Shown: one piece after another, positions 185-21,623 of the stretch
Position numbering within the stretch: position 1 is the first letter of the stretch
How the letters are laid out: each line of letters opens with the position of its first letter
Source: an uncultured Clostridia bacterium
Lineage (GTDB): Bacteria; Bacillota; Clostridia; Christensenellales; Pumilibacteraceae
Assembly: GCA_947589465.1 (NCBI GenBank)
Contig: CANQAE010000013.1
Coordinates: 1-32,000, forward strand
Reading direction: 5' to 3'
Length of the DNA stretch: 32,000 nt
Made by a program: the position numbers and the translations under genes
The notes under the pieces: generated by a model
Database searches by the model: none
Told to the model about the DNA's origin: nothing
The model's input: the letters and a program-made list of their open reading frames with translations, nothing else

Positions 185-3100
185 ATGTCCGATTTCGAAT
201 CTTTGTACAACGAATGTCAAGCCAATGCTTTTGCCGCCGCCAAGGAAATGTTTTACGACAACAAGGTGGGGGATATAAGCGAAAAGGATTTCGGCGGCAA
301 GACGGTTATTTCCGCCGCCGTGAAAGATAGGCGCGAACATCGTACGAAGATTATTTTCGACGAGCAGGGCGGGCTTTATGACTACTCGTGCGACTGCGAA
401 GAATTCGATATGGCGAACGGACCGTGCAAACATATTATCGCCACCGCGCTTTCTTACGAGGAGAAAAATCCGCAGAGTCGGGACGAGTCAAGACGATTCA
501 TATCCGATTCGTGTGTACAGGGGCTCATAAGTTCATATGCAAAACTGCGCATAGGTCGTATTTACAGGGAAGATCCGCCCGTTAATTTGACGCCCGTGTT
601 GGGACTTATAGGCGATCTCTTGTATTTGCGGTTTACGATAGGCAAAAAAAGAGCGTACAAACTCAAAAATATCGAAGAATTTTGCGTTAATATGAGTAAC
701 GGCGCGTTCCATAGGTACGGATCGGCGCTCGCTTTCGAACATTTCGCGGACAATTTTTCTGACGAGAGCAAAAAACTCGTGGCGTTTATCGTCCGTACGG
801 TAAGAGATAAACGTAATTCGACTCACGAAGAAATCAAGGACAAGTTGTTTGTTTCGCCATCAGACCTCGACGACTTCATTGACGTTTGCGAAAACGGGCT
901 TATCGAGATCGAAGAAGGCAATGCGGGCGAGGGCGTTCGCCAGATCGTCAAACAGCCCGACGCGCTCAAAGTTCGGCTTGATATCCGCGCAGTCGAGGGG
1001 GGATGTATCGTAAAAACCAATCTCGGCACGTTCAGGACGCTGAACGGGCGACGCTATGACTACGTTCTCACTTCGAGCAGAATTTACAGGGTCACCGACG
1101 AATTCGTTTCGTCTGCGCTCAAATTGCTCGTGACGCTCAACTCGCGCGGCGAAGTTTTTATTTGCGAACGCGACATAGGAAGATTTTACAACAACGTTCT
1201 CAAAGAAGCGCGTTTTACTGACGTAAATTGCGATTTCGATTTGACGAAATACGACGTACCGCCGCTCAAAGCCTCGCTCTTTCTCGACCTCGAAGGCGAC
1301 GTCGTGCAAGGCAAACTCGAATGTTTTTACGGCGACGTCGAAACGGATATTTTCTCCGACCCCATGTACGGCGACCGCGATATCGACGCCGAGGAGAATT
1401 TGAAGGAGTGCCTTGCGCGTTACTTCCCGTATTTTCCGCACCTCGCGCTCGACGACAACGACTCTATTTACCTTCTTATGACCGACGGTTTGCGTAGCAT
1501 AGGCAGACATTGCGAGGTGTTTATGGCGGCGGCAATGCAGAAAATTTCCGTTCGAAAGCCGCCCGGAATCAAGGTTGGCGTTAAACTCAGTGCAAATCTA
1601 ATTGACCTCGACCTCTCTGCGGACGGGTATACTTACGACGAACTCGTTAGGATTATAGGCGCGGCAAAATCGAGCAAATATATAAGGCTGGGTAACGATT
1701 TCATAGATCTTACTGACCCCGGATTAAAGGCTTTGTCTAACGTTTTGGGGCTGAGCGACGGACCGCTTCCGCTCTATTACGCGCCGCATATAATAGAAGA
1801 ACTCGGCGAATATTACGAACTCGGCGACGAATGTAAAAGAAAACTCGACTTCAAACGAACGGAAGTTGCGCTTCCGGGCGAATTGAAAGAGGTATTGAGA
1901 GCATATCAGATTACGGGCGTAAAGTGGCTTACCGCCCTCAAAGAAAACGGCTTCGGCGGTATTCTCGCCGACGATATGGGACTCGGCAAAAGTTTGCAGA
2001 TAATTGCGCTCATCATGGCGCACGGACTCAAAACGATCATCGTTTGCCCGACAACGCTTATACTCAATTGGAAGAACGAGTTCGAAAAGTTCGCTCCGAA
2101 CATTAAGGTTTTGTGCGTCATGGGTGGCAGGGACGAACGCGTCGCCGTTATAGACAACGCGGACAAGGCGAACGTCGTCATCACTTCTTACGAACTCATT
2201 CGACGCGACATAGACAGTTACACGATGGACTTCGACCTTGCCGTACTCGACGAGGCGCAGTTCATAAAAAATCCCGAAACCAAAAATTCCAAAGCGGTGA
2301 AAAAACTGAAAAGCAAATACAGGTTCGCTTTGACGGGCACGCCAATCGAAAACAGCCTTGCCGAACTATGGTCTATCTTCGACTTCTTGATGCCCGGATA
2401 TCTGTTTTCTTACGGCAAGTTCAAGGAACGTTTCGAAGTGGAGATAGTGAACGGCAACAAGGACGCTGAGGCTGAACTTAGGCGGCTCGTTATGCCGTTT
2501 ATTCTCCGCAGACTCAAAGCCGAGGTGCTGAGCGAACTTCCGCCCAAGGTCGAAACTAACATTGTCGCGCCGCTTACGGGCGAGCAAGCCGATTATTACA
2601 ACGCGCATCTCGCGCTCATTCGCCGCAGTATAAAAAACCAAACGGGCATCAACAAGATCACCGTGCTTACCATGCTAACCAAACTCAGGCGCATTTGTTG
2701 CGACCCGTCACTCGAAGACAGCGCTTACAAGGGCAATTCGGCTAAACTCGAAGCGTGCTTGCAACTCGTGGACTCGGCGATAAAAGGCGGGCACAAGACG
2801 CTTATTTTTTCGCAGTTCACTTCCATGCTCGATATTATCCGCGAAAAGTTGCTCCATGCGGGCGTCACCAACTATATGCTTACGGGCGACACCCCAAAAG
2901 CCGAACGAATGAAATTCGTCAATCGGTTCAACAGGGACGACACGCAGGTGTTTTTGATATCGTTGCGCGCGGGCGGCACGGGACTTAATCTTACGGGCGC
3001 GGACGTCGTCATTCATTACGACCCATGGTGGAACCTTTCGGTCATGAATCAGGCGACGGACAGGGCGTACAGGATAGGCCAGCAAAGGTCCGTTCAGGTA

Positions 3101-3229
3101 TATTCGCTCTTGCTCGACGGCACTTTGGAGCAGAAGATAGTCGAACTTCAAAAGAGAAAAGCGGGGCTGTCGGGACTACTTGAAGGCGACAGCGCCGAAC
3201 TTTCGGAACTACTCAAACTCATCGAATGA
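185..3229 (+). CDS. SWIM zinc-finger / SNF2-family DNA-dependent ATPase (helicase-like translocase)
   Basis: 1,014-aa ORF with an AAGGAG SD at 174-179. SWIM finger C69-x-C71-x9-C81-x-H83 (SCDCEEFDMANGPCKH). SNF2 motifs present: LADDMGLGKSLQ (I), VLDEAQFIKN (II), LTGTPIENSL (III), QATDRAYRIGQ (VI). Confidence 0.93.
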   Translation: MSDFESLYNECQANAFAAAKEMFYDNKVGDISEKDFGGKTVISAAVKDRREHRTKIIFDEQGGLYDYSCDCEEFDMANGPCKHIIATALSYEEKNPQSRDESRRFISDSCVQGLISSYAKLRIGRIYREDPPVNLTPVLGLIGDLLYLRFTIGKKRAYKLKNIEEFCVNMSNGAFHRYGSALAFEHFADNFSDESKKLVAFIVRTVRDKRNSTHEEIKDKLFVSPSDLDDFIDVCENGLIEIEEGNAGEGVRQIVKQPDALKVRLDIRAVEGGCIVKTNLGTFRTLNGRRYDYVLTSSRIYRVTDEFVSSALKLLVTLNSRGEVFICERDIGRFYNNVLKEARFTDVNCDFDLTKYDVPPLKASLFLDLEGDVVQGKLECFYGDVETDIFSDPMYGDRDIDAEENLKECLARYFPYFPHLALDDNDSIYLLMTDGLRSIGRHCEVFMAAAMQKISVRKPPGIKVGVKLSANLIDLDLSADGYTYDELVRIIGAAKSSKYIRLGNDFIDLTDPGLKALSNVLGLSDGPLPLYYAPHIIEELGEYYELGDECKRKLDFKRTEVALPGELKEVLRAYQITGVKWLTALKENGFGGILADDMGLGKSLQIIALIMAHGLKTIIVCPTTLILNWKNEFEKFAPNIKVLCVMGGRDERVAVIDNADKANVVITSYELIRRDIDSYTMDFDLAVLDEAQFIKNPETKNSKAVKKLKSKYRFALTGTPIENSLAELWSIFDFLMPGYLFSYGKFKERFEVEIVNGNKDAEAELRRLVMPFILRRLKAEVLSELPPKVETNIVAPLTGEQADYYNAHLALIRRSIKNQTGINKITVLTMLTKLRRICCDPSLEDSAYKGNSAKLEACLQLVDSAIKGGHKTLIFSQFTSMLDIIREKLLHAGVTNYMLTGDTPKAERMKFVNRFNRDDTQVFLISLRAGGTGLNLTGADVVIHYDPWWNLSVMNQATDRAYRIGQQRSVQVYSLLLDGTLEQKIVELQKRKAGLSGLLEGDSAELSELLKLIE

Positions 3230-5621: not shown

Positions 5622-5663
5622 AAAGACGGTCGTATCGAAAGGTACGGCTGTCTTTATTTTTTT
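5622..5663 (+). terminator. Rho-independent terminator after pyrR
   Basis: 13-bp stem AAAGACGGTCGTA (5622-5634) / TACGGCTGTCTTT (5643-5655) with two G-U pairs and an 8-nt loop, followed by A-TTTTTTT (5656-5663). Confidence 0.85.
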
Positions 5664-5733: not shown

Positions 5734-5762
5734 TTGACGGCGGCGCATATTAATGATATACT
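5734..5762 (+). promoter_or_regulatory. Sigma-A-type promoter of the giant gene
   Basis: TTGACG (5734-5739), 17-nt spacer, TATACT (5757-5762). A palindrome TATTCG-N6-CGAATA (5770-5787) sits just downstream. Confidence 0.55.
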
Positions 5763-5815
5763 ATGAACGTATTCGGAATTTCGAATATAATCGTCATTAA
5801 TGCGAGGAAAGATTT

Positions 5816-8800
5816 TTGAGCAATGAATTAAAAGACGTCAACAACGACGATCCCGCCCTCAACGAGAAAGAACTCGGTGGCGAAACAGATACCGAAAATA
5901 AGACCGAGCCCGAAAAGATCGAGGACTCCAACGAGAACTCGGCAAACAAAAACTCGGCAGACGGTAAAACCGCAAACGAAGTAACGGCAGACGTCAAAAC
6001 GAAGAAACAAAAAAAATTCAAAGAAAGTAAGCAAAAGAAGAAAAGAGGTTGCTTTTTTTACGGTTGTTTGTCGTTGCTCATTTTTAATTTCGTATGCGTA
6101 TGCCTGCTTATAGGCGTAGGCTGGGTCATGGGCGACCAATATTCGCGTCAATATCTCGGTATGGGACTAACCGAAACTTTTGACGTTGTGACCGGTGTAG
6201 TAAAGTCCAACGATTCGGTAGTTGATAACCCGTACGGCGAGGGCGACGAAGATAAGTTTTACGACGCGCTCGGCGACGCGTTGTTCCTGAATCATGGCGT
6301 CGTGGACGGCGACGAACTCAAAACGTACGTAACGGACGGCATAAAGAACGAGGAGGACATGGGCGCTTACATGGGCGATTATGCAGTTTCGCTGCTTACC
6401 GCCGACAACATTAATCAAGAGCGACTTGACCTTATCGACGATAATAATTTAGATACTTTCAACTTCAAGGTGACCGACAGACAACTTGCGGCTTTTTTAG
6501 ACGGCATCATAGACAGCGTCGCCGAAGATTTGCTCGTTGATATGATACTGGGTGACGATTTCGACGCGGAGAGTTACGGACTCGACGTCGAAAGTCTGCA
6601 TTTCGAAGATTATATCGCGCTCAATCAAATTACGTTGCACGTAGAAAACCGCACGGTCGGCGGCGTGTCCACGCCCGTGAATATGGCGAAATTGACGGTG
6701 TCCGTAAGTTTGCATAAGATAATAGACGAAGTTACAAAGGCTTTGGATGTAGATAAGTTCGTAGACAATCAACTTCAATCGGCGGCGTCCATGAAATCGC
6801 TCGTAAGTTTCGGGTTCGGCAGCGCGCCGGGCTTACTGAAAATGATTCTTCCCGCAACTTTCTATATCACCATAGACATGGGGCTTTCGCATAACGTCGA
6901 ACCCGATCTGTTCATAAACAATATGAACGGGGAAAAAATGACCAAACTTTATTCGCTGCTCAAAAGCACGGGACTCGATATTCAATCCGAACTCAACAAC
7001 ATATTCGTAGAAGAAGAAGGAGCCGTAAAAGAGGCTCTTGACTCTACGAACGAAATCGTTCCGCTCGGCGAAATTTTTACCGATGGCGGGATAAATTGCG
7101 ACCTGTATCAAAAAATAATAGATTTTTCGAAACTCAATTACGAACAGACGGACGAAGGCGAAAGGCTTAAACCCGAAGCGCAACGCATAACTTCGACCGA
7201 CGTTTTGAAAACTTTGCAACTCGTTTTGAGCGACAGTTCGGCATACAGAGAGCGACTTAAAAACCAAGAATACAGTTACAAGAGTTGGCAATTCAAGCAC
7301 AATGCGGACGGTGGGATAGTTATCGAAAACGGCGAACCCGCCATCGAGTTCACGCCCGAATATTACGACGTCAATTGCAAGGATATAAAGGCGCTCATAG
7401 ACGACTACAACGAACTCATATTGTCGCGTTTCAGTAACTGTTACGGCTTGAAGCGCGACGAAAATACGACGGTGGATAGCATAATCTCCGCTTTCGGAGA
7501 CGGAGAATTCGACCAAAACACCATTCTCGACCTGTTCGACGCTCAAAAGATAAAGAAAATCATAAGCGGCGACGATCCCTCCTCTCTCGTCATTGACGAC
7601 AAGATGCTCGCCGCGATTGTCATTAACCTTATGGACAGCATTAATTCCGAAGCAGGGCTTAATGACGGCGATATAGATATCGAATACATTCATATAGAAG
7701 AACGAAACAACGGCGGAGTAAAACATCATATTCTCAATGCGGGAATAAATCTCAACGTGGCTTCGATAGTTGAGTCCAAAGCGGACAACGAACTCATAAG
7801 CAAGATCGTAAAAGGACTCGCCGAAAAGTTTCTTGTGGAAGCGGCGATAGACATTACGATCGTAAACGAAGAAGATCGTGACGGCTTTAAATACGAAGAT
7901 ACAGTTCTCAGGATAAACGACAGGAGCGCGTCGGCGATAGACAAGATCCTTACGTCGCTCGGCGTGTTCGGCAGCGACGAAAACGGAGAAAACATTACCT
8001 TTACGGGCTTTATGGATTCGAGTTTGTCCACCGTGCGCGATACGATAGGCAATCTCGGCAAGTTGCCTAATTTGCAATTGCAAAGTTCGGCGCTCAAACT
8101 TCCCGATGTTTACGACGCTTTGTCTGCCGTCATTAACGGAGAAAAGACAGAGGGCGAGAAAGGTTATATCGAGCGCAATACGCTGAAAGACGCGCTGTCG
8201 CTGCTCATTAACGACGGACCGCTCGCCGACGAAAGCGCAACGAATCCTTATTCCATATACGGAGATAGCGAAGCGAATAAACAACGTTTTTCCGATTACA
8301 ATCAAAAGTGCGCAGATGCTTTGCTTGACGAACTCGGCAAGAAGTACGGACTCGATTATACGGCGGATGACGGCGAAGATTATACGCTTGCCGAAGTCCT
8401 TTATATCCTCGGCATAGGCGATACGGCTACCGAAAGGGTGCAAGACAAGGACATTTACGGTTTGCTCGGCAAAGACAAACTTTCGGCTATATCGGCTCGT
8501 GACGGCGATTGGAGCAATGACTTAAAGGTGAATATCCAAAACGTCATTTACACCGATAATAATGGTAGCGAGGGACGCGATATGCTTACCGCGCTCATAA
8601 GGCAGGTAATGTTCGCAAACGGCAATCCTTTCGAGGATCTCGGCGACGCATTGAACGAGAACAGCCTTTTGTACGTTAAACTCAGTGGCACGGGCAACAA
8701 ATTATATATGACAATAGCGGTAAAGGCGATTTTAAGCGAACTCATTCCCGCTGACGAAGAAAATTCGGCTATAACCGATTTCGTCAAGAGCCTCTTGCCG

Positions 8801-11512
8801 AATTCCCCTGCGCTCATTACGATCAAGGTAGATATTTCGCTAGGAGCGGGCGGATACGAGGACAGCGTTATTACCGTCAACAACGATCAAGAGAGCAGTA
8901 GTTCGCTTTTGAAACTTCTCGACGATCTCAATATAAATCTCGAACTCGACAGCATAGGAGATAAGGTCCGTGAAGCGGTAGACAATTTGCGCGGCAACGA
9001 CCAAGTGGATATCGAACTCGGCGCGGACGGAATAAAGATAGACAATCTTTTCGAAGTCGTAAGCACGAAAATGGCAAAGGGCGAAGAAACAGATCTTTCG
9101 GCAGACGACGTTAAATTTTTGATGGATTCGCTACTCAATTCGAACATGATCACGCCCGACAAGGAGAACGACTTCCGCAATTGGTACTACGGTAGCGCGA
9201 GCGACAAGAGCGAAAGCGGTTGGGTATACGGTTCGGGCAAAGCCGATCCCGATCTTGCCATAGACTTCGGCGAAAAACTCAACGAGGACTTGCTCCGCGC
9301 TTATGCGTTAAAGACAATGAGCGACGCGGGCAAGGAATATACTTTGACTGATACTATGTCGCTGTTCGGACTCGGTTCGGGCGACAGCACGGACGAATTT
9401 ATCGACCGTATTGACAAGACGGCGCTCGAAGAAAAGGTGTTCAACGAACTCGAAGATCTCAATGTGGACAATCGCAGACTCGGTGCGCTCGTAATAAGCA
9501 ACTTTGGTGACTTCATAGGCGGCGCGGAAGATATTACTGCGGAAGATATCTTGTATGTCGCAATAAGCAAAAATGGCGCGGACAGTTTGCTTACGGTCGC
9601 GGTAAAAATTTCCGTTTCGGAGAAGATAGCGGTGGGCGACGTACAACAATTCCAAAGTTTGTTGCCCGAATTTGCGACCGCGACGGTAACGATAGATATA
9701 ACAAAAGGCAAGACTGTATATGCGAACACGGTTATCGAATATAACAATTTAGGCGATAAGACGAACGATCTTCTCGATATCATTCGAAGGATAAGCGACG
9801 TGCAACTCGATTTCAACGATGTTGCCGCTTCGGTAAGAAATGCGCTTAATAATCTCGGCGACACCGTAGATGTGACTTACGGCGAGAATGCGCTCGTTCT
9901 TCCCAATCTGTTTTCGGTTATGAACGACGTTTTGTTTGAGAACTTGTACGAGGAAAAAGGCGACGAAAAGATCCAATCGGCGCTTCGCGGAGTGTATGCT
10001 TCGAGCGAAACCGAAATTACTGACGACGGCGAAAATATGACGCGCGCAGAACAATACAAGAAACAGAAAATAACTCCGTCTATTCAAAGCGGTAAGGCGT
10101 TTGCGCCAAATAAGGATTACATCGGCTTTATGAACGAAATAAAGGATAAGTACTTCCTCCAAGGCACGCTTGCTTCGATTAATGACTTCGATTCCCTGTA
10201 TGAACAAATTAAGATAGACGATTTCAATGCCGCAGATATAAACATAAGCGACGAGAACGGACTTGCGTATACGACCCGCAAAATCAAAGGCGAAAATGAC
10301 AGCGACAGGGAGAACGATCTCACGCCGATCATGTCTTACGGAGATCTCGGCGCAGTCCTGAAAGATCATATGACCTCCGACATGAATGTCGAAATCCTTT
10401 CGATCGAAGTTTCCGAAAGGGGAGCGAAAAAACTTGTTATGAACGTTTCGATAGCGCTTGACGAATTGTTCAAAGACAAGGGCGATATGTCGAAAATCAT
10501 AAGCGTTAAAAAATTATTCGCAAAAATAGTAACCGACCTCAATACGGCGACAGACAATTCGTATAAGACTGTCGTAACCCTTAACGATATGAAAGATGAG
10601 CAACAAAAGACGCTAAAAGACATCATAGGCAAGTTCGGCGCAACGGGCGGCGACGCCGATATTGCCGATCTCGAAAGGAAGATAGGCGAGGCGGTCTACG
10701 ATGCGTTCGGCGTTTTGGATGCGGCATATAAAGACAATTACGAAATTCACGAGGGCGGAATAGAGTTTTGTGACATTTTTACATTCATAGGCAAAAACGC
10801 AATCGGAATGGAAACGGAATACGAAGGGGACGATATAAGAGCGGCTTTGCAGGGAATGTACGAGGCGAAGAACGGTGACAATGCGAACAACAATGAAAAC
10901 AACTATGTTGTCGATAAGATCATACGAAACCCCGTTACTACAAAGCCGTCGATAACAACTACGTTGGACGATGCTCAGTTCGGTGCGACGGTAAAAGAGT
11001 CTATAGGCGAAGTCGGCACGCTCGAACAATTAAGTATTCTCACAAAGTCGCCGTCGGCTTCCTCCAATCAAACGGAGGACAGAAAAATCCTCGATGAACT
11101 CGGCTATACGCTCACGAACGAAAATACGTATATTCTGGTTACGTTAAAAGCGGACATTAATAAGATGAGCGGCGAAACGGAATGGAGCGGGAGCAACAAC
11201 GGAAAGGCGATTTTGCCCAATGATATGTACTTGACTTTTATCCTCAAATACAATGAGGATACGAAACAATTCGATTACGAAAATTTCGTACTCAACAATA
11301 TGACGAATGACACCCTAACCGTGCTCCTGAAATTGACGGGCATAGGTAACGCAAGCGAAAATATCGCTGCCAATGCGGATATCTGCCTCAATAAAATCAA
11401 CGAAGCACTAACAACCGTTTCGTTGGTTCCGGGAATAACGACAAATTATCATTTCGAAGAAAATACTTCTATGGGTTCCAAAATTCGCGGAAAGATCGTG
11501 TACGAAAACTGA
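5816..11512 (+). CDS. Giant (1,898 aa) N-terminally membrane-anchored, highly acidic repeat protein; no family recognised
   Basis: Uninterrupted 5.7-kb ORF with a TTG start at 5816 and a GAGGAAAG SD at 5804-5811. The first in-frame Met is residue 105, after the membrane span. K/E/N-rich N-terminus ends in KKQKKFKESKQKKKRG, followed by one hydrophobic span (aa 79-106, nt 6050-6133) and about 1,790 D/E/N-rich residues. It has its own promoter and terminator. Confidence 0.85.
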   Translation: MSNELKDVNNDDPALNEKELGGETDTENKTEPEKIEDSNENSANKNSADGKTANEVTADVKTKKQKKFKESKQKKKRGCFFYGCLSLLIFNFVCVCLLIGVGWVMGDQYSRQYLGMGLTETFDVVTGVVKSNDSVVDNPYGEGDEDKFYDALGDALFLNHGVVDGDELKTYVTDGIKNEEDMGAYMGDYAVSLLTADNINQERLDLIDDNNLDTFNFKVTDRQLAAFLDGIIDSVAEDLLVDMILGDDFDAESYGLDVESLHFEDYIALNQITLHVENRTVGGVSTPVNMAKLTVSVSLHKIIDEVTKALDVDKFVDNQLQSAASMKSLVSFGFGSAPGLLKMILPATFYITIDMGLSHNVEPDLFINNMNGEKMTKLYSLLKSTGLDIQSELNNIFVEEEGAVKEALDSTNEIVPLGEIFTDGGINCDLYQKIIDFSKLNYEQTDEGERLKPEAQRITSTDVLKTLQLVLSDSSAYRERLKNQEYSYKSWQFKHNADGGIVIENGEPAIEFTPEYYDVNCKDIKALIDDYNELILSRFSNCYGLKRDENTTVDSIISAFGDGEFDQNTILDLFDAQKIKKIISGDDPSSLVIDDKMLAAIVINLMDSINSEAGLNDGDIDIEYIHIEERNNGGVKHHILNAGINLNVASIVESKADNELISKIVKGLAEKFLVEAAIDITIVNEEDRDGFKYEDTVLRINDRSASAIDKILTSLGVFGSDENGENITFTGFMDSSLSTVRDTIGNLGKLPNLQLQSSALKLPDVYDALSAVINGEKTEGEKGYIERNTLKDALSLLINDGPLADESATNPYSIYGDSEANKQRFSDYNQKCADALLDELGKKYGLDYTADDGEDYTLAEVLYILGIGDTATERVQDKDIYGLLGKDKLSAISARDGDWSNDLKVNIQNVIYTDNNGSEGRDMLTALIRQVMFANGNPFEDLGDALNENSLLYVKLSGTGNKLYMTIAVKAILSELIPADEENSAITDFVKSLLPNSPALITIKVDISLGAGGYEDSVITVNNDQESSSSLLKLLDDLNINLELDSIGDKVREAVDNLRGNDQVDIELGADGIKIDNLFEVVSTKMAKGEETDLSADDVKFLMDSLLNSNMITPDKENDFRNWYYGSASDKSESGWVYGSGKADPDLAIDFGEKLNEDLLRAYALKTMSDAGKEYTLTDTMSLFGLGSGDSTDEFIDRIDKTALEEKVFNELEDLNVDNRRLGALVISNFGDFIGGAEDITAEDILYVAISKNGADSLLTVAVKISVSEKIAVGDVQQFQSLLPEFATATVTIDITKGKTVYANTVIEYNNLGDKTNDLLDIIRRISDVQLDFNDVAASVRNALNNLGDTVDVTYGENALVLPNLFSVMNDVLFENLYEEKGDEKIQSALRGVYASSETEITDDGENMTRAEQYKKQKITPSIQSGKAFAPNKDYIGFMNEIKDKYFLQGTLASINDFDSLYEQIKIDDFNAADINISDENGLAYTTRKIKGENDSDRENDLTPIMSYGDLGAVLKDHMTSDMNVEILSIEVSERGAKKLVMNVSIALDELFKDKGDMSKIISVKKLFAKIVTDLNTATDNSYKTVVTLNDMKDEQQKTLKDIIGKFGATGGDADIADLERKIGEAVYDAFGVLDAAYKDNYEIHEGGIEFCDIFTFIGKNAIGMETEYEGDDIRAALQGMYEAKNGDNANNNENNYVVDKIIRNPVTTKPSITTTLDDAQFGATVKESIGEVGTLEQLSILTKSPSASSNQTEDRKILDELGYTLTNENTYILVTLKADINKMSGETEWSGSNNGKAILPNDMYLTFILKYNEDTKQFDYENFVLNNMTNDTLTVLLKLTGIGNASENIAANADICLNKINEALTTVSLVPGITTNYHFEENTSMGSKIRGKIVYEN

Positions 11513-11514
11513 CG

Positions 11515-11690
11515 TTTCGCGGCACGGCAAAAGCGTTTGTAGGTCTTGCGAAAGTTTTGGGCGGCAAAGCGGAGAATAACCGACGAAAGTAGGGACGCGG
11601 CAAAGCGGAACAGGTCGACTTAACGCGCGAAAGTTCGAGTCGCGGCAAAGTAGAGAATGATCGACCGACGGAAGTTCGGCAATATAAAAA
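11515..11690. repeat. Degenerate tandem repeat, 4 units of about 36-45 bp (GCGGCAAAG ... CGAAAGT)
   Basis: Exact GCGGCAAAG at 11561, 11597 and 11642, plus variant CGGCAAAAG at about 11526. Each is followed 23-31 bp later by CGAAAGT (11549, 11584, 11628) or CGGAAGT (11669). The array lies between the giant-gene stop (11512) and the terminator. Confidence 0.55.
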
Positions 11691-11693
11691 AAC

Positions 11694-11734
11694 AAAGCGT
11701 TTCATGAGGCATATGCCCATGAAACGCTTTTAAG
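11694..11734. terminator. Bidirectional rho-independent terminator shared by the giant gene and the convergent lipoprotein gene
   Basis: Near-perfect 37-nt palindrome AAAGCGTTTCATG-a-GGCATATGCC-CATGAAACGCTTT (11694-11730). It is flanked by AAAAAAA upstream (a U-run for the minus-strand transcript) and TTTTAA downstream. Confidence 0.8.
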
Positions 11735-11745
11735 GTTAATGAGTT

Positions 11746-12720
11746 TTATCGAACATTATCGAGTGTATAGATATTCGTATATTGTATGCCCGAAAAAGTA
11801 GAGGTTTCGTAACTTTTCATTTTGACGAGCATAAGCGAACTTATGTCGGGGTTACTGCTCTCGCGGTTTTTGTAGTACTTGCCCGCCGCGTACGAAGCAT
11901 ACAAATTTAATCCCGGTTTGTTGCCTTGCAAACTGAGCCTTGTGTCGTAGCAAACGATTTTGCCTGTTTCGGGGTCGCTTTCGTCGAAGTTGCCGATAAA
12001 GTCGGACGCCGAAACCGAAACGCCACGCGCCATTGAACAGTTAGCCGTCCAATCGGTCGCGAAAAACTTGTTTGCCGCAAAACATTCATACCAATTCACG
12101 ATGCTGAAATTTTGACTGAGAGAGCCGTTGATATTTCCGTCCTTTACTTTGAGAGCGTCAAGACCTTCGAACGCGCGCACGTAATACATCATATATTCGT
12201 TGTCAATGTAACTGCCTTCGAATTTGAGTTGACGGTCGCCTTTATTGTCAGTATATTTGGCTTCGCCCTTGTTGTAATCGACTTCGAAACTGTACGATAA
12301 GTCGGGAGTGGTTTGAAGTACGACCTCCTTTTTCGAATATACGGCGTACAAATTTGCCGCGGTAAATTCGACTGTTGAAGTTATTGTGTCAGTTTTGCCC
12401 GCAAAGTCGGGTCTTTCGCCACGGTATGTCAGCGAGAACTCGGTACTGAGGACGTACGAAGTTTCGTTGTTTTCGAGTTTGTTTTCGAGCGTCGTCTTGT
12501 AAGTTCCCTCCGCGGTGACTATCGGTTGCGTGTCGGTGGAAATGTCGGGATCGTAATCGCCCGCATATTGCGTCACAACGTACTCGCAAGTTTCACTTTG
12601 AAAACCTATATAACTCCACGGCAACAAGGTCTTTATTGCGGGGACGACAGGTTGAGCGCAGGCTACGCAACACAGCGTAATGCTCAAAACCGAGATAATT
12701 ACTGTAAAAAGTTTTTTCAT
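11746..12720 (-). CDS. Secreted protein or lipoprotein of unknown function
   Basis: Track start 12771 replaced by ATG 12720, with a GGAGAAG SD just upstream on the minus strand. The N-terminus MKKLFTVIISVLSITLCCVACAQP is a signal peptide with Cys residues in a lipobox-like position. The mature part is rich in T/S/Y/N and looks beta-rich. No motif recognised. Confidence 0.75.
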   Translation of the reverse strand: MKKLFTVIISVLSITLCCVACAQPVVPAIKTLLPWSYIGFQSETCEYVVTQYAGDYDPDISTDTQPIVTAEGTYKTTLENKLENNETSYVLSTEFSLTYRGERPDFAGKTDTITSTVEFTAANLYAVYSKKEVVLQTTPDLSYSFEVDYNKGEAKYTDNKGDRQLKFEGSYIDNEYMMYYVRAFEGLDALKVKDGNINGSLSQNFSIVNWYECFAANKFFATDWTANCSMARGVSVSASDFIGNFDESDPETGKIVCYDTRLSLQGNKPGLNLYASYAAGKYYKNRESSNPDISSLMLVKMKSYETSTFSGIQYTNIYTLDNVR

Positions 12721-18985: not shown

Positions 18986-19010
18986 TTGAACGATTGAAAA
19001 TTTGTTCAAT
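18986..19010. promoter_or_regulatory. Putative ArsR/SmtB-family operator O1
   Basis: TTGAACGATTGAAAATTTGTTCAAT has inverted arms TTGAAC/GTTCAA, or ATTGAA-N6-TTCAAT in another register. It sits immediately downstream of the -10. It shares the 11-mer TTGAACGATTG and the TTCAAT arm with O2. TGAA..TTCA half-sites are typical of SmtB/CzrA-type operators. Confidence 0.5.
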
Positions 19011-19024
19011 TGATTGGAGGAATT

Positions 19025-19360
19025 ATGGGCGAGCGATGTGCCGACAACGCAAACGAAATCTTTGACAAAATGCCTCGCGAGGACGAAATCTACGACCTTG
19101 CGGAACTATTCAAGATGTTCGGCGATCCGACGCGCGTTAAAATTCTGTCCTGTCTGCAAATTCGCAATATGTGCGTAGGAGAACTCGCGAGTGTTCTCGA
19201 TATGACCGTTTCCGCCGTGTCGCACCAACTCAGAGTGTTGCGCGGAGCAAAACTCGTCAAAGGGACGAAGGACGGCAAAGAGGTCATGTATTCGCTCGAC
19301 GACGATCACGTCACCAAAATCATGGAGTACGGCTTGACGCACGTCAACGAGGACAGATGA
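19025..19360 (+). CDS. ArsR/SmtB-family metal-responsive repressor (SmtB/CzrA-like alpha-5 Zn/Cd site)
   Basis: Track start 19010 replaced by ATG 19025, with GGAGG at 19016-19020. wHTH core FKMFGDPTRVKILSCL...CVGELASVLDMTVSAVSHQLRVLRGAKLV. The C-terminal D-x-H-x10-H-x2-E (DDHVTKIMEYGLTHVNE) has the same spacing as the SmtB alpha-5 metal site. Confidence 0.9.
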   Translation: MGERCADNANEIFDKMPREDEIYDLAELFKMFGDPTRVKILSCLQIRNMCVGELASVLDMTVSAVSHQLRVLRGAKLVKGTKDGKEVMYSLDDDHVTKIMEYGLTHVNEDR

Positions 19361-19414: not shown

Positions 19415-19458
19415 GTACCATTATTCAACTATAAGTGAAACCGAGGAGGATATTCGAA

Positions 19459-19677
19459 ATGAAAAAGGTGTTTAGGTTAGAAGATTTGGATTGTGCGAAC
19501 TGCGCCGCCAAGATGGAGAGGTGCATTTTGAAGATCGACGGCGTTACCGACGCGAAAGTAAGTTTCATCGGGCAGAAAATGACTATCGAAGCGGACGAAG
19601 TCAAGTTCGACGAAATTATGAAGCAAGTGGAAAAAACTTGCAAAAGGGTAGAACCTGATTGCAGGATAGTTAGGTAG
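19459..19677 (+). CDS. Stand-alone heavy-metal-associated (HMA) domain protein, CopZ-like
   Basis: Track start 19435 replaced by ATG 19459, with GAGGAGGA at 19443-19450. 72 aa with LEDLDCANCAAKMERCI, a CxxC metal-binding loop. The ferredoxin-like HMA pattern continues through GVTDAKVSF...KMTIEAD. Confidence 0.85.
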   Translation: MKKVFRLEDLDCANCAAKMERCILKIDGVTDAKVSFIGQKMTIEADEVKFDEIMKQVEKTCKRVEPDCRIVR

Positions 19678-19682
19678 GGCGT

Positions 19683-21623
19683 ATGGAAAAACTCGGCGGC
19701 AAAGAAAAGAGAATGCTTATTCGCATAATAGTTGCTCTCGTCATGTTTGCGGCAGTTTTTGCGAGCGATCTCATCTTCGGGCTGGATACAGTTTTCGAGG
19801 GCAAATTTTCGTGGCTTTTTCCTTTCGCTCTCTATCTTGTCGTCTATATAACGATAGGATACGACGTTTTGCGTAAGGCGGCTTTGAACGTTTTACACGG
19901 ACAGATATTCGACGAGAATTTCCTGATGTGCGTGGCGACGCTCGGTGCGTTTGCGCTCGCCATATACAGAGGGGTACGCGGGATAGGAACTGACGGGTTC
20001 GAAGAAGGTTGCGCCGTGCTGCTTTTCTATCAAGTGGGGGAATGGTTTCAGCGATACGCGACGGGCAGATCGCGCAAGTCGATATCTTCGCTTATGGACA
20101 TAAGACCGGACTACGCGTCGGTCAAGCGAAACGGCGAAGTTGTGACCGTCGATCCGAGCGAAGTAGAGATCGGTGAAATAATAGTGGTAGATCCGGGCGA
20201 AAAGATTCCGCTCGACGGAAAGATAATTTCGGGCAGGTCCACGCTCGACACCAAGGCGCTTACGGGTGAATCGTTGCCGCGCGACGCGCAAGAGGGAGAG
20301 GAAGTTTTGAGCGGATGCGTCAACCTCACTTCGCAACTCGAAATAGAGGTAGAAAAGGAATTTCACGACAGCACCGTTTCAAAAATTCTCGATCTCGTCG
20401 AAAACGCATCTGACGCAAAGTCCAAAGCCGAGAATTTCATCACGGTTTTCGCAAAGTATTATACGCCCATAGTTATAGCGGCGGCTGTGCTTTTGGCGGT
20501 CATTCCGGGGATAGTCACAGGCGAATGGTCGGTATGGGTGTATAGGGCGCTGAGTTTTTTGGTCGTGTCCTGCCCGTGCGCCCTCGTAATATCAATACCG
20601 CTGACCTTCTTTTGCGGCATAGGCGCGGCTTCCAAACGAGGAATACTCGTCAAGGGGTCGAATTATCTCGAAAAACTGAACGGCGCGAATATTTTTGTTT
20701 TCGATAAGACGGGAACGCTTACAAAGGGCAATTTCGCGCTTGCGAGCGTCAATCCGCCGCAAAAGAAAGACGAAATTTTGAAACTTGCGGCGACTTGCGA
20801 ACGCGATTCAATTCATCCGATAGCAAGGTCGATTATAGAATGTTACGGCGGCAAGACCGAGGACGGATATGTTCTCACGAACGTAGCGGGCGAAGGCGTA
20901 AAAGCAGTTAAGGGCGACGACGTGATCGTTTGCGGCAACGAGAAACTGATGACAACCGAAAAAATCGAGTTCGTCAAAGAGAACGCTTCGGGTACCGTCG
21001 TCTATGTGGCGCATAACGGCAAATTCGAGGGGTCGCTTTTGTTTGCCGACGAAATAAAGTCCGGAAGCAAAGAAGTTGTTTCCGCTTTGAACGACATGGG
21101 GTGCAAAACGGTTATGCTCACGGGCGACAACGAGTCAATTGCGAAGGATGTCGCCGACAAACTCGGCGTCTGCGAATATAAGGCGTCGCTCATGCCTCAG
21201 GACAAAGTGAATAAGGTCGAAAAGATGCTCGCGGACAAAAAAGCCAAGGATGTGTTGTGTTTTGTCGGCGACGGCATAAACGACGCGCCTGTTCTTATGC
21301 GCTCGGATATAGGGATCGCCATGGGAGGAGTGGGGAGCGACGCCGCTATCGAGGCTTCGGACGTCGTGCTTATGTACGACGATCTGCGCGCCATTCCGCT
21401 CGCGAAACGCATAGCGGCAAAGACGATGAAAATAGTGCGCGAAAACATTATATTTTCGCTTGTAGTAAAGGCGGGCATACTCGTCCTTTCGGCGCTTGGG
21501 TTAGCCAATATGTGGGTGGCGGTTTTCGGCGACGTCGGCGTTGCCGTGCTTGCTATCATAAATGCGATGCGCGCCAATTCGGTGCGCGACGAAAGGACGA
21601 ATTCGAAGCGAAAAAAGTCTTAA
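19683..21623 (+). CDS. cadA: P1B-type heavy-metal (Zn/Cd/Pb-type) translocating ATPase lacking an N-terminal metal-binding domain
   Basis: 646 aa. TM6 motif SCPCALVISIP, phosphorylation site FDKTGTLT, hinge GDGINDAP. The last TM carries GDVGVAVLAIINAMR (D-x-G as in ZntA/CadA, not the MxxSS of Cu pumps). The symbol is a family-level guess; zntA is equally possible. Confidence 0.9.
   Translation: MEKLGGKEKRMLIRIIVALVMFAAVFASDLIFGLDTVFEGKFSWLFPFALYLVVYITIGYDVLRKAALNVLHGQIFDENFLMCVATLGAFALAIYRGVRGIGTDGFEEGCAVLLFYQVGEWFQRYATGRSRKSISSLMDIRPDYASVKRNGEVVTVDPSEVEIGEIIVVDPGEKIPLDGKIISGRSTLDTKALTGESLPRDAQEGEEVLSGCVNLTSQLEIEVEKEFHDSTVSKILDLVENASDAKSKAENFITVFAKYYTPIVIAAAVLLAVIPGIVTGEWSVWVYRALSFLVVSCPCALVISIPLTFFCGIGAASKRGILVKGSNYLEKLNGANIFVFDKTGTLTKGNFALASVNPPQKKDEILKLAATCERDSIHPIARSIIECYGGKTEDGYVLTNVAGEGVKAVKGDDVIVCGNEKLMTTEKIEFVKENASGTVVYVAHNGKFEGSLLFADEIKSGSKEVVSALNDMGCKTVMLTGDNESIAKDVADKLGVCEYKASLMPQDKVNKVEKMLADKKAKDVLCFVGDGINDAPVLMRSDIGIAMGGVGSDAAIEASDVVLMYDDLRAIPLAKRIAAKTMKIVRENIIFSLVVKAGILVLSALGLANMWVAVFGDVGVAVLAIINAMRANSVRDERTNSKRKKS

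Follow-up and report, generated by a model that had tools for sequence, protein, structure and literature searches.

What kind of protein is encoded by a 5.7-kb gene that stands alone among housekeeping genes of an uncultured Clostridia bacterium, and what could it do at the cell surface? The gene lies in a 32,000-nucleotide (nt) stretch of contig CANQAE010000013.1 (the whole stretch is called the window here) and encodes a protein of 1,898 amino acids (aa), which a first-pass annotation had described as an orphan. Judged by its sequence, this giant protein belongs to a family found in gut Clostridia and Clostridiales, and its ectodomain consists of six related modules. With moderate confidence, we propose that it is a membrane-anchored multi-module stalk which would reach into or through the cell wall.

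The modular architecture is cryptic. Self-BLAST of the giant protein detected no repeats, while profile comparison with hhalign over sliding segments of a four-sequence alignment paired residues 938-1081 with 1232-1368 at 97.8% probability, 1285-1358 with 1565-1641 at 58% and 175-237 with 544-611 at 53%. When the sequence was cut at the implied period and the pieces were aligned, six colinear, full-length modules of 240-370 aa were obtained (Table 1), with the common motifs ...KYGL..., GxG, xTDxxLAA, LLP and a strand end of the form hxhN[ND]. The earlier description of the protein as repetitive holds, therefore, at the level of profiles and of the module alignment, but not in the sense of repeats that self-BLAST could see. 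A hidden Markov model (HMM) of the core domain, iterated once, found six cores in the window protein and 2-5 in most relatives (usually four), and the core was absent from every other open reading frame (ORF) of the window and of 12 related loci.

Whole-module gain or loss occurs within the family, and modules 1 and 2 are those kept by most family matches. The columns of module 4 are filled to only 0-18% in the relatives P0003-P0012 (P numbers denote family proteins, L numbers genome loci), P0003 being without this module; by BLASTP, module 4 is 26% identical to module 3 (E = 3e-16), and it is a diverged duplicate related to module 3 and confined to the window lineage. This extra copy accounts for the length of the window protein, which exceeds that of all other family members. 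Module 6 reaches the C-terminus (...RGKIVYEN), which leaves no room for a tip domain of its own or for another anchor.

The fold of the module is predicted with confidence. In the long AlphaFold2 model (residues 70-1269, 71-sequence alignment; mean predicted local distance difference test score (pLDDT) 79.8, predicted template modelling score (pTM) 0.61), modules 1-3 lie mostly at pLDDT 80-95, the linkers between them show no low confidence, and low confidence is limited to the truncated and shallowly aligned module 4. Module 2 modelled alone is ~48% helix and ~17% strand by its element list, and the long model is similar. Its N-terminal part is a long helix followed by three short ones, with a helix-GxG-helix element among them, and leads to the core, made of a short strand, an 18-residue helix and a 13+13-residue hairpin. 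The core gives way to two helices and a pair of strands with a short helix between them, and the module closes with another long helix, a short hairpin and terminal helices. A helix-GxG-helix element is present in each module (8370-8440, 9330-9400 and equivalents; e.g., LAEVLYILGIGDTATERV) and superficially resembles a helix-hairpin-helix; it had no helix-hairpin-helix match in Pfam, and DNA binding is unlikely because the giant protein is far too acidic. Across the family, N368 is invariant and D144, N198, D221, Q271, P346, D429 and Y543 are near-invariant, and the module alignment places equivalents of the conserved residues in successive modules. D595 is at a helix start in the model of module 2, where N701 comes directly after a strand; going by the model, the conserved positions look structural, not catalytic. 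An enzyme is unlikely, since the ectodomain has no conserved constellation of His, Cys or Ser residues.

The single hydrophobic span reported in the first-pass annotation (residues ~78-106) was confirmed, and it follows a low-complexity head that terminates in KKQKKFKESKQKKKRG. Lysine or arginine makes up 11 of the 16 residues ahead of this anchor, and the 15 residues that follow contain a single R beside one D and one E, so the flanking charges favour an N-in/C-out, type II orientation, which would leave the 1,792-aa ectodomain outside the cell. AlphaFold2 predicts an unbroken helix over residues 80-114, in which the transmembrane helix continues into the first domain, and the juxtamembrane segment (residues 107-139) is where the matches of nearly all family members start. 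The ectodomain is acidic and has few cysteines, as had been stated, with 320 D+E against 159 K+R (net charge -161), an isoelectric point (pI) of 4.27 and 6 Cys; scans of the giant protein for calcium-binding or EF-hand-like motifs gave no periodic pattern.

Where the transmembrane helix begins on the cytoplasmic side, a cysteine cluster follows directly on the polybasic run (window 6050-6112, residues 79-98). It is kept family-wide, e.g., in P0004, P0016, P0020, P0064 and P0075, taking the form CCxxCC in many members and C79/C84, together with C96/C98, in the window protein. The cluster could serve for metal binding, acylation or oligomerisation.

The term orphan was wrong, because relatives were found. 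A word-indexed search gave only three, and an exhaustive HMMER scan, with a profile of residues 107-1300 against 1.84 billion cluster representatives, gave 79 proteins at E <= 1e-3 and 67 at E <= 1e-10, that is, at least 79 clusters at 50% identity. Most of these matches span profile positions 1-700 only. A search seeded with the typical member P0020 returned 84 clusters at 90% identity, nearly all of 1,200-1,310 aa, which form a well-populated four-module subfamily. All named members are hypothetical proteins from metagenome-assembled genomes (MAGs), nearly all labelled Clostridia or Clostridiales and one Roseburia sp.; a locus search with a narrower family alignment led to 3 genome loci, and the MAG sources of the genome loci are sheep colon and goat caecum. 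On the strength of these searches, this is a previously unannotated family of gut Clostridia/Clostridiales with well over a hundred sequence clusters and with neither a name nor a curated model in the libraries searched, and a literature search found no described equivalent.

Family members have a common layout, in which a basic stretch (KKKR), the Cys cluster and a single transmembrane helix are followed by an acidic ectodomain of 2-6 modules. The juxtamembrane family consensus is GVGWxFGDKYxKxxLxMSL..., and the window protein fits the signature as KKKRG-CFFYGC-TM-GDQYSRQYLGMGL, where TM stands for the transmembrane helix. The ectodomain pI is 4.0-5.0 in nearly all of ~80 relatives, and the 4.3 of the window protein falls inside this range. 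Head length goes from almost absent to ~225 aa across the family (transmembrane start at residue 6 to 227), the long heads being acidic and of low complexity. In P0004 and P0006 (residues 1-225), heads of ~220 aa are made of acidic tandem repeats (EEPEEESEEDSFW..., ATEEATPEAEA...) ahead of the polybasic run and transmembrane helix; P0004 comes from the sheep-colon MAG contig on which L004 lies. Because some relatives carry such repeat heads, the cytoplasmic head is highly expandable and lineage-specific. At L011, SpoIIE (634-2898) is encoded ~1.4 kb upstream of a five-module family gene, and since this genome encodes SpoIIE, at least some of the hosts are probably endospore-forming Firmicutes.

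The gene is real, conserved and under selection. The 1,898-aa ORF with its TTG start (ORF list and translation), the good Shine-Dalgarno sequence and a first Met at residue 105 were all confirmed on the sequence, and, when the sequence was read directly, no further in-frame ATG, GTG or TTG was found ahead of the transmembrane segment. An NCBI MAG record (P0082) holds the identical protein with the same start. Regarding possible disruption in close relatives, the ORF is intact in the orthologues P0001 (1,891 aa, 96% identity, syntenic locus L001) and P0002 (1,895 aa, 84% identity), in both of which the head indels stay in frame, and the GC content of the gene is like that of its neighbours. Against the 96%-identical orthologue, the ratio of non-synonymous to synonymous substitution rates (dN/dS) is 0.21, which indicates purifying selection, with regional values of 0.12 for modules 1-2, 0.25 for module 5 and 0.29 for module 6.

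The proposal that the gene forms its own transcription unit stood in part. In its favour, the gene stands alone, and a promoter-like sequence (5734-5762) is found just 3' of the hairpin terminator at 5622-5655, which ends the upstream phosphoribosyltransferase (PRTase) unit and so isolates the giant gene from upstream transcription. The palindrome at 11694-11730, which had been taken as the terminator, gives a terminator score on the minus strand only, after the convergent lipoprotein gene; it is possibly bidirectional, but its use by the giant gene is plausible yet putative, since it lies 180 nt past the stop codon and has its T-run on the minus strand. The gap at 11516-11675 contains 3-4 degenerate copies of GCGGCAAAGCGGA ... 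(T)AACCGACGAAAGT at a spacing of ~36-45 nt; it is ~92% identical in the sister genome L001, which is no special conservation, and it has no Rfam match. Rfam and tandem-repeat scans in general gave nothing relevant.

Table 1. Features of the giant gene, its protein and its flanks, with window positions and the basis of each assignment.
Feature	Position	Strand	Basis or remark
Hairpin terminator of upstream PRTase gene	5622..5655	+	15-bp stem, then T-run
Putative sigma-70-like promoter, TTGACG-17-TATACT, TG extension before -10	5734..5762	+	10/12 matches; consensus match only
Shine-Dalgarno GAGGA, 7 nt 5' of TTG	5804..5808	+	read from sequence
Coding sequence, 1,898 aa + stop codon	5816..11512	+	ORF list and translation
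Predicted cytoplasmic head, aa 1-77, low-complexity, variable, polybasic end	5816..6046	+	translation
Predicted Cys-bearing signal-anchor transmembrane helix, aa 78-106 (C79, C84, C96, C98)	6047..6133	+	only hydrophobic span
Conserved juxtamembrane ecto-segment, aa 107-139	6134..6232	+	family consensus GDxYxKxxLxMSL...
Module 1, aa 140-509, largest	6233..7342	+	module alignment, profile comparison, AlphaFold2; dN/dS 0.12
Module 2, aa 510-810	7343..8245	+	module alignment; AlphaFold2 pLDDT 88.1, pTM 0.83
Module 3, aa 811-1129	8246..9202	+	hhalign, module alignment; pLDDT ~90 in long model
Module 4, aa 1130-1409, lineage-specific extra copy	9203..10042	+	hhalign 97.8%, BLASTP
Module 5, aa 1410-1655	10043..10780	+	hhalign, module alignment; dN/dS 0.25
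Module 6, aa 1656-1898, distal end	10781..11509	+	module alignment; dN/dS 0.29
Perfect 13-bp palindrome between two convergent genes	11694..11730	.	T-run on minus-strand side
Convergent lipoprotein gene, predicted, 324 aa (MKKLFTVIISVLSITLCCVAC...)	11746-12720	-	no Pfam/NCBIfam match

Comparison with domain collections gave no known domain. Pfam and NCBIfam had no significant match to the whole giant protein, Pfam had none to the six single modules at E <= 10, and the 36 relatives scanned contained no Pfam domain. The wall-binding domains SLH, CWB2, LysM and SH3b were absent from the giant protein (Pfam, NCBIfam), Ig-like, fibronectin-binding and other adhesin domains were absent from the whole protein, the six modules and the 36 relatives (Pfam), and a regular-expression scan of the giant protein found no LPXTG or NPxTG motif; these scans agree with the earlier statement that LPXTG, SLH, known adhesin domains and catalytic motifs are lacking. 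AsmA, DUF490 and Chorein_N were found neither in the giant protein nor in its relatives. PHROGs and PADLOC gave no match to the giant protein, whose neighbours are housekeeping genes with no defence-island context, and no significant match was obtained with PDB sequence profiles. One PDB profile match, to the 3-oxoacyl-ACP reductase 2uvd (E = 2e-5), was rejected as spurious as it was gone with a deeper family profile, and Pfam DUF5797 (17 bits, cutoff 25) together with single-module matches at E ~0.05-0.8 was judged to be noise.

For both models, Foldseek returned nothing below E = 0.4 from the PDB (TM-scores < 0.45). Against BFVD, Foldseek gave nothing below E = 0.03. The weak top matches were PITP-alpha, BPIFA1, cystatins and cystatin-derived scaffolds, Aha1-N, a VirB8 homologue and SnoaL-like cyclases, which, as far as the models can tell, share just a helix-on-curved-sheet arrangement. 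Profile and Foldseek checks thus gave no confident match for the ectodomain, and the earlier impression that the protein fits no recognised family was borne out.

How might such a protein be deployed? In the stalk model, the variable cytoplasmic head, the polybasic run and the Cys-bearing signal-anchor helix would hold the protein in the cytoplasmic membrane, and the conserved juxtamembrane segment, followed by six non-enzymatic alpha/beta modules without disordered linkers, would form a polyanionic body outside the cell. This body may be an elongated, fairly rigid stalk or fibre into or through the cell wall, with its length set by the number of modules, and it could act as a scaffold or spacer. 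Its base would be the conserved, membrane-proximal modules, and the distal ones, which evolve faster, would lie more exposed at the other end; a gradient from proximal to distal was indeed observed, as the family matches lie mostly in positions 1-700 and dN/dS goes from 0.12 to 0.25-0.29. Several points weigh against this model. The stalk shape leans on pTM and on the lack of disordered linkers, the charge may be non-functional because an acidic pI is common among secreted Firmicute proteins, and no wall-binding, adhesin or ligand-binding motif was identified in the giant protein. Additionally, a distant known fold, and with it a function, could be missed, because folds were compared with Foldseek against the PDB and BFVD only.

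Alternatively, the modules could be TULIP/BPI/PITP-like alpha+beta rolls that bind lipids or other hydrophobic ligands, with the array capturing, holding or passing lipids outside the membrane or between the forespore and mother-cell membranes, which we consider unlikely, although it has several points in its favour. The module core runs in the order strand, helix, long hairpin, strand, strand; the non-significant Foldseek tops include PITP-alpha (E = 0.4, probability 0.38) and BPIFA1/SPLUNC1 (E = 0.56), and those of the long model a toluene-tolerance periplasmic transport protein; and DUF2140 offers a precedent, being an N-anchored extracellular TULIP of monoderms for which a lipid role has been proposed (PMC6791001). 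However, nothing fell below E 0.4, TM-scores for BPIFA1 and PITP were <= 0.21, and the single modules matched neither DUF2140, DUF2993 and DUF1439 nor any other lipid-binding family of Pfam at E <= 10. Matches to cystatins, Aha1-N and VirB8-like proteins were equally weak, which points to a general helix-on-sheet likeness only.

A role as surface adhesin or receptor is unlikely to the same degree; in this variant of the stalk model, the distal modules would bind host, dietary or microbial ligands. Faster evolution of the distal modules, a module number that differs between lineages and the gut origin of the relatives (sheep colon and goat caecum among the sources) would all suit such a role, but a distal-module dN/dS well under 1 would not, and the gene is a single-copy gene among housekeeping genes and not part of a variable island. 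Moreover, the scans found no known adhesin, lectin, Ig-like or carbohydrate-binding domain, and no LPXTG motif or wall-binding repeat.

More speculatively, and with a probability that we set rather low, the module may represent a new fold and the protein a polyanionic membrane-tethered rod, serving as a ruler or a cation-buffering envelope scaffold, with the Cys cluster used for metal- or acyl-dependent assembly. Such a ruler or scaffold might then be, and we rate this just as low, the protein counterpart of a membrane-tethered wall polyanion, in which module count would set the reach into the wall.

Improbable, in our view, is an extracytoplasmic regulator resembling the N-anchored YycH/YycI, which would control a membrane kinase, protease or wall enzyme via its juxtamembrane part. 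The transmembrane helix, the juxtamembrane segment and module 1 are kept in nearly all family matches, as such a regulator might require, and Foldseek gave a weak match to a WalK-YycH model (E = 2.8). This match is insignificant, no conserved adjoining kinase, protease or enzyme was seen in the 12 loci, and 1,200-1,900 aa of repeated modules go far beyond the need of such regulators.

The first-pass annotation had also raised a bridge-type transfer protein, i.e., a bridge-like lipid transport protein of the AsmA/TamB/YhdP or VPS13 type between two membranes, and this idea did not survive well: we regard it as very improbable. The N-terminal transmembrane anchor, the giant size and the repeated modules are alike, but AsmA, DUF490 and Chorein_N matches are absent, the modules (~48% helix, 17% strand) are not predicted to form a continuous beta-groove, and the C-terminus has no membrane- or outer-membrane-protein-docking domain. 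The hosts, moreover, are labelled Clostridia/Clostridiales, and one carrier genome encodes SpoIIE. Finally, a TTG start and a low-complexity head could mean a mis-called gene, but a spurious or decaying, unexpressed ORF is practically negligible as an explanation, given a 5.7-kb frame intact in three genomes with in-frame indels and a dN/dS of 0.21, > 150 related clusters of conserved length, a confident AlphaFold2 fold, and promoter and Shine-Dalgarno signals.

With regard to genomic context, the giant gene stands alone in all 12 loci, with its own intergenic spacers and unrelated housekeeping neighbours (AddAB, PolA/CoaE, a Na/H exchanger, ArsB, NAD synthase/GlyRS, a nucleoside hydrolase, a MoxR ATPase, SpoIIE/rubrerythrin, and a cation efflux protein/subtilase), and these loci showed neither an operon partner nor a secretion system, a sortase or any sign of a mobile element. 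The window is core chromosome. Its genes include those for an SNF2 helicase, HtpG, the PRTase, AddB/AddA, a copper ATPase, thioredoxin, an M20 peptidase, a class I Glu/Gln-type tRNA synthetase, an RNase III-domain protein, ThyA, DHFR, a SpoU-type methylase, TIM and iPGM.

The convergent lipoprotein is itself an uncharacterised family. A copy with 33% identity occupies the same position in L003 and L004, while tblastn found none in L002 and L005-L009 (L010-L012 being outside that search). A link between the lipoprotein and the giant gene was considered and rejected: the pair stands side by side in no clade but the closest one (window, L001, L003 and L004), where AddB accompanies it, which is ordinary synteny and not a conserved partnership. 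Residues 1-87 of the lipoprotein, which include the signal peptide, gave a weak match to the PHROG 'spackle' (E = 0.0017).

Upstream, at 185-3229 (+), lies a 1,014-aa helicase with SWIM, SNF2_assoc and SNF2 domains, syntenic in L001; its strong PADLOC match to DpdE/ZorD covers the generic helicase core only, with no other defence genes nearby. Downstream of AddA, the segment 19010-21623 (+) comprises two small ORFs (19010-19360 and 19435-19677) and then a P-type ATPase (19683-21623). The L001 counterparts of the small ORFs carry HTH_5/HTH_20 and HMA domains, and by its domains the segment looks like a typical copper-resistance cassette.

For uncultured gut Clostridia, large and conserved envelope proteins that wholly lack annotation form a blind spot, and the module of this family is confidently predicted while having neither a Pfam model nor a significant PDB match by Foldseek. 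If the stalk model is true, the family would represent a new Gram-positive way to display or space surface structure, with a signal-anchor and a new module in place of sortase anchoring; if the modules bind lipids, the protein would be an unusual extracytoplasmic array by which a monoderm handles lipids. On either reading, the family merits a domain definition and a solved structure.

Among known systems, LPXTG-anchored giants are very large, acidic, extracellular tandem-module proteins which project from the wall and whose module number varies between strains or lineages; their N-terminal signal peptide is cleaved and their anchor, LPXTG or other, is C-terminal, whereas the window protein has a predicted uncleaved N-terminal signal-anchor, no LPXTG and a module without a Pfam match. 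YueB/EsaA proteins of Firmicutes combine a membrane-embedded anchor with a long ectodomain that is believed to span the thick wall and to be surface-exposed. They are polytopic, largely helical and associated with the type VII secretion system, in contrast to the window protein, which is single-pass, genomically alone (12 loci) and made of predicted alpha/beta modules; no homology between them was detected. AsmA-like proteins, TamB and YhdP share an N-terminal transmembrane anchor, giant size and repeated structural units, but they are almost all-beta grooves of diderm envelopes, recognisable by Pfam, unlike these helix-rich alpha/beta modules from hosts labelled Clostridia.

Regarding single domains, the order of the module core (strand, helix, long hairpin, insertion, two strands) resembles that of cystatins, and cystatins and cystatin-derived scaffolds gave the best TM-scores (TMt 0.35-0.42), with probabilities <= 0.23 and root-mean-square deviations of 6-9 Å. 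A fold match to cystatins or Aha1-N was not demonstrated, and the module is ~3x larger and has extra helical sub-domains. DUF2140/TULIP would be similar in its N-terminal anchor, its domain outside a monoderm cell and its alpha+beta unit with a helix on a twisted antiparallel sheet, and BPIFA1, one of the weak Foldseek tops, is a TULIP protein. DUF2140 is, however, a single domain, present about once per species in Bacilli (PMC6791001), whereas the window protein has six tandem modules with large helical sub-domains, and no sequence match or significant structural match links the two. A large modular surface protein is thus a familiar kind of Gram-positive protein; what is new here is how it is anchored, through an N-terminal signal-anchor that carries a Cys cluster, and its module.

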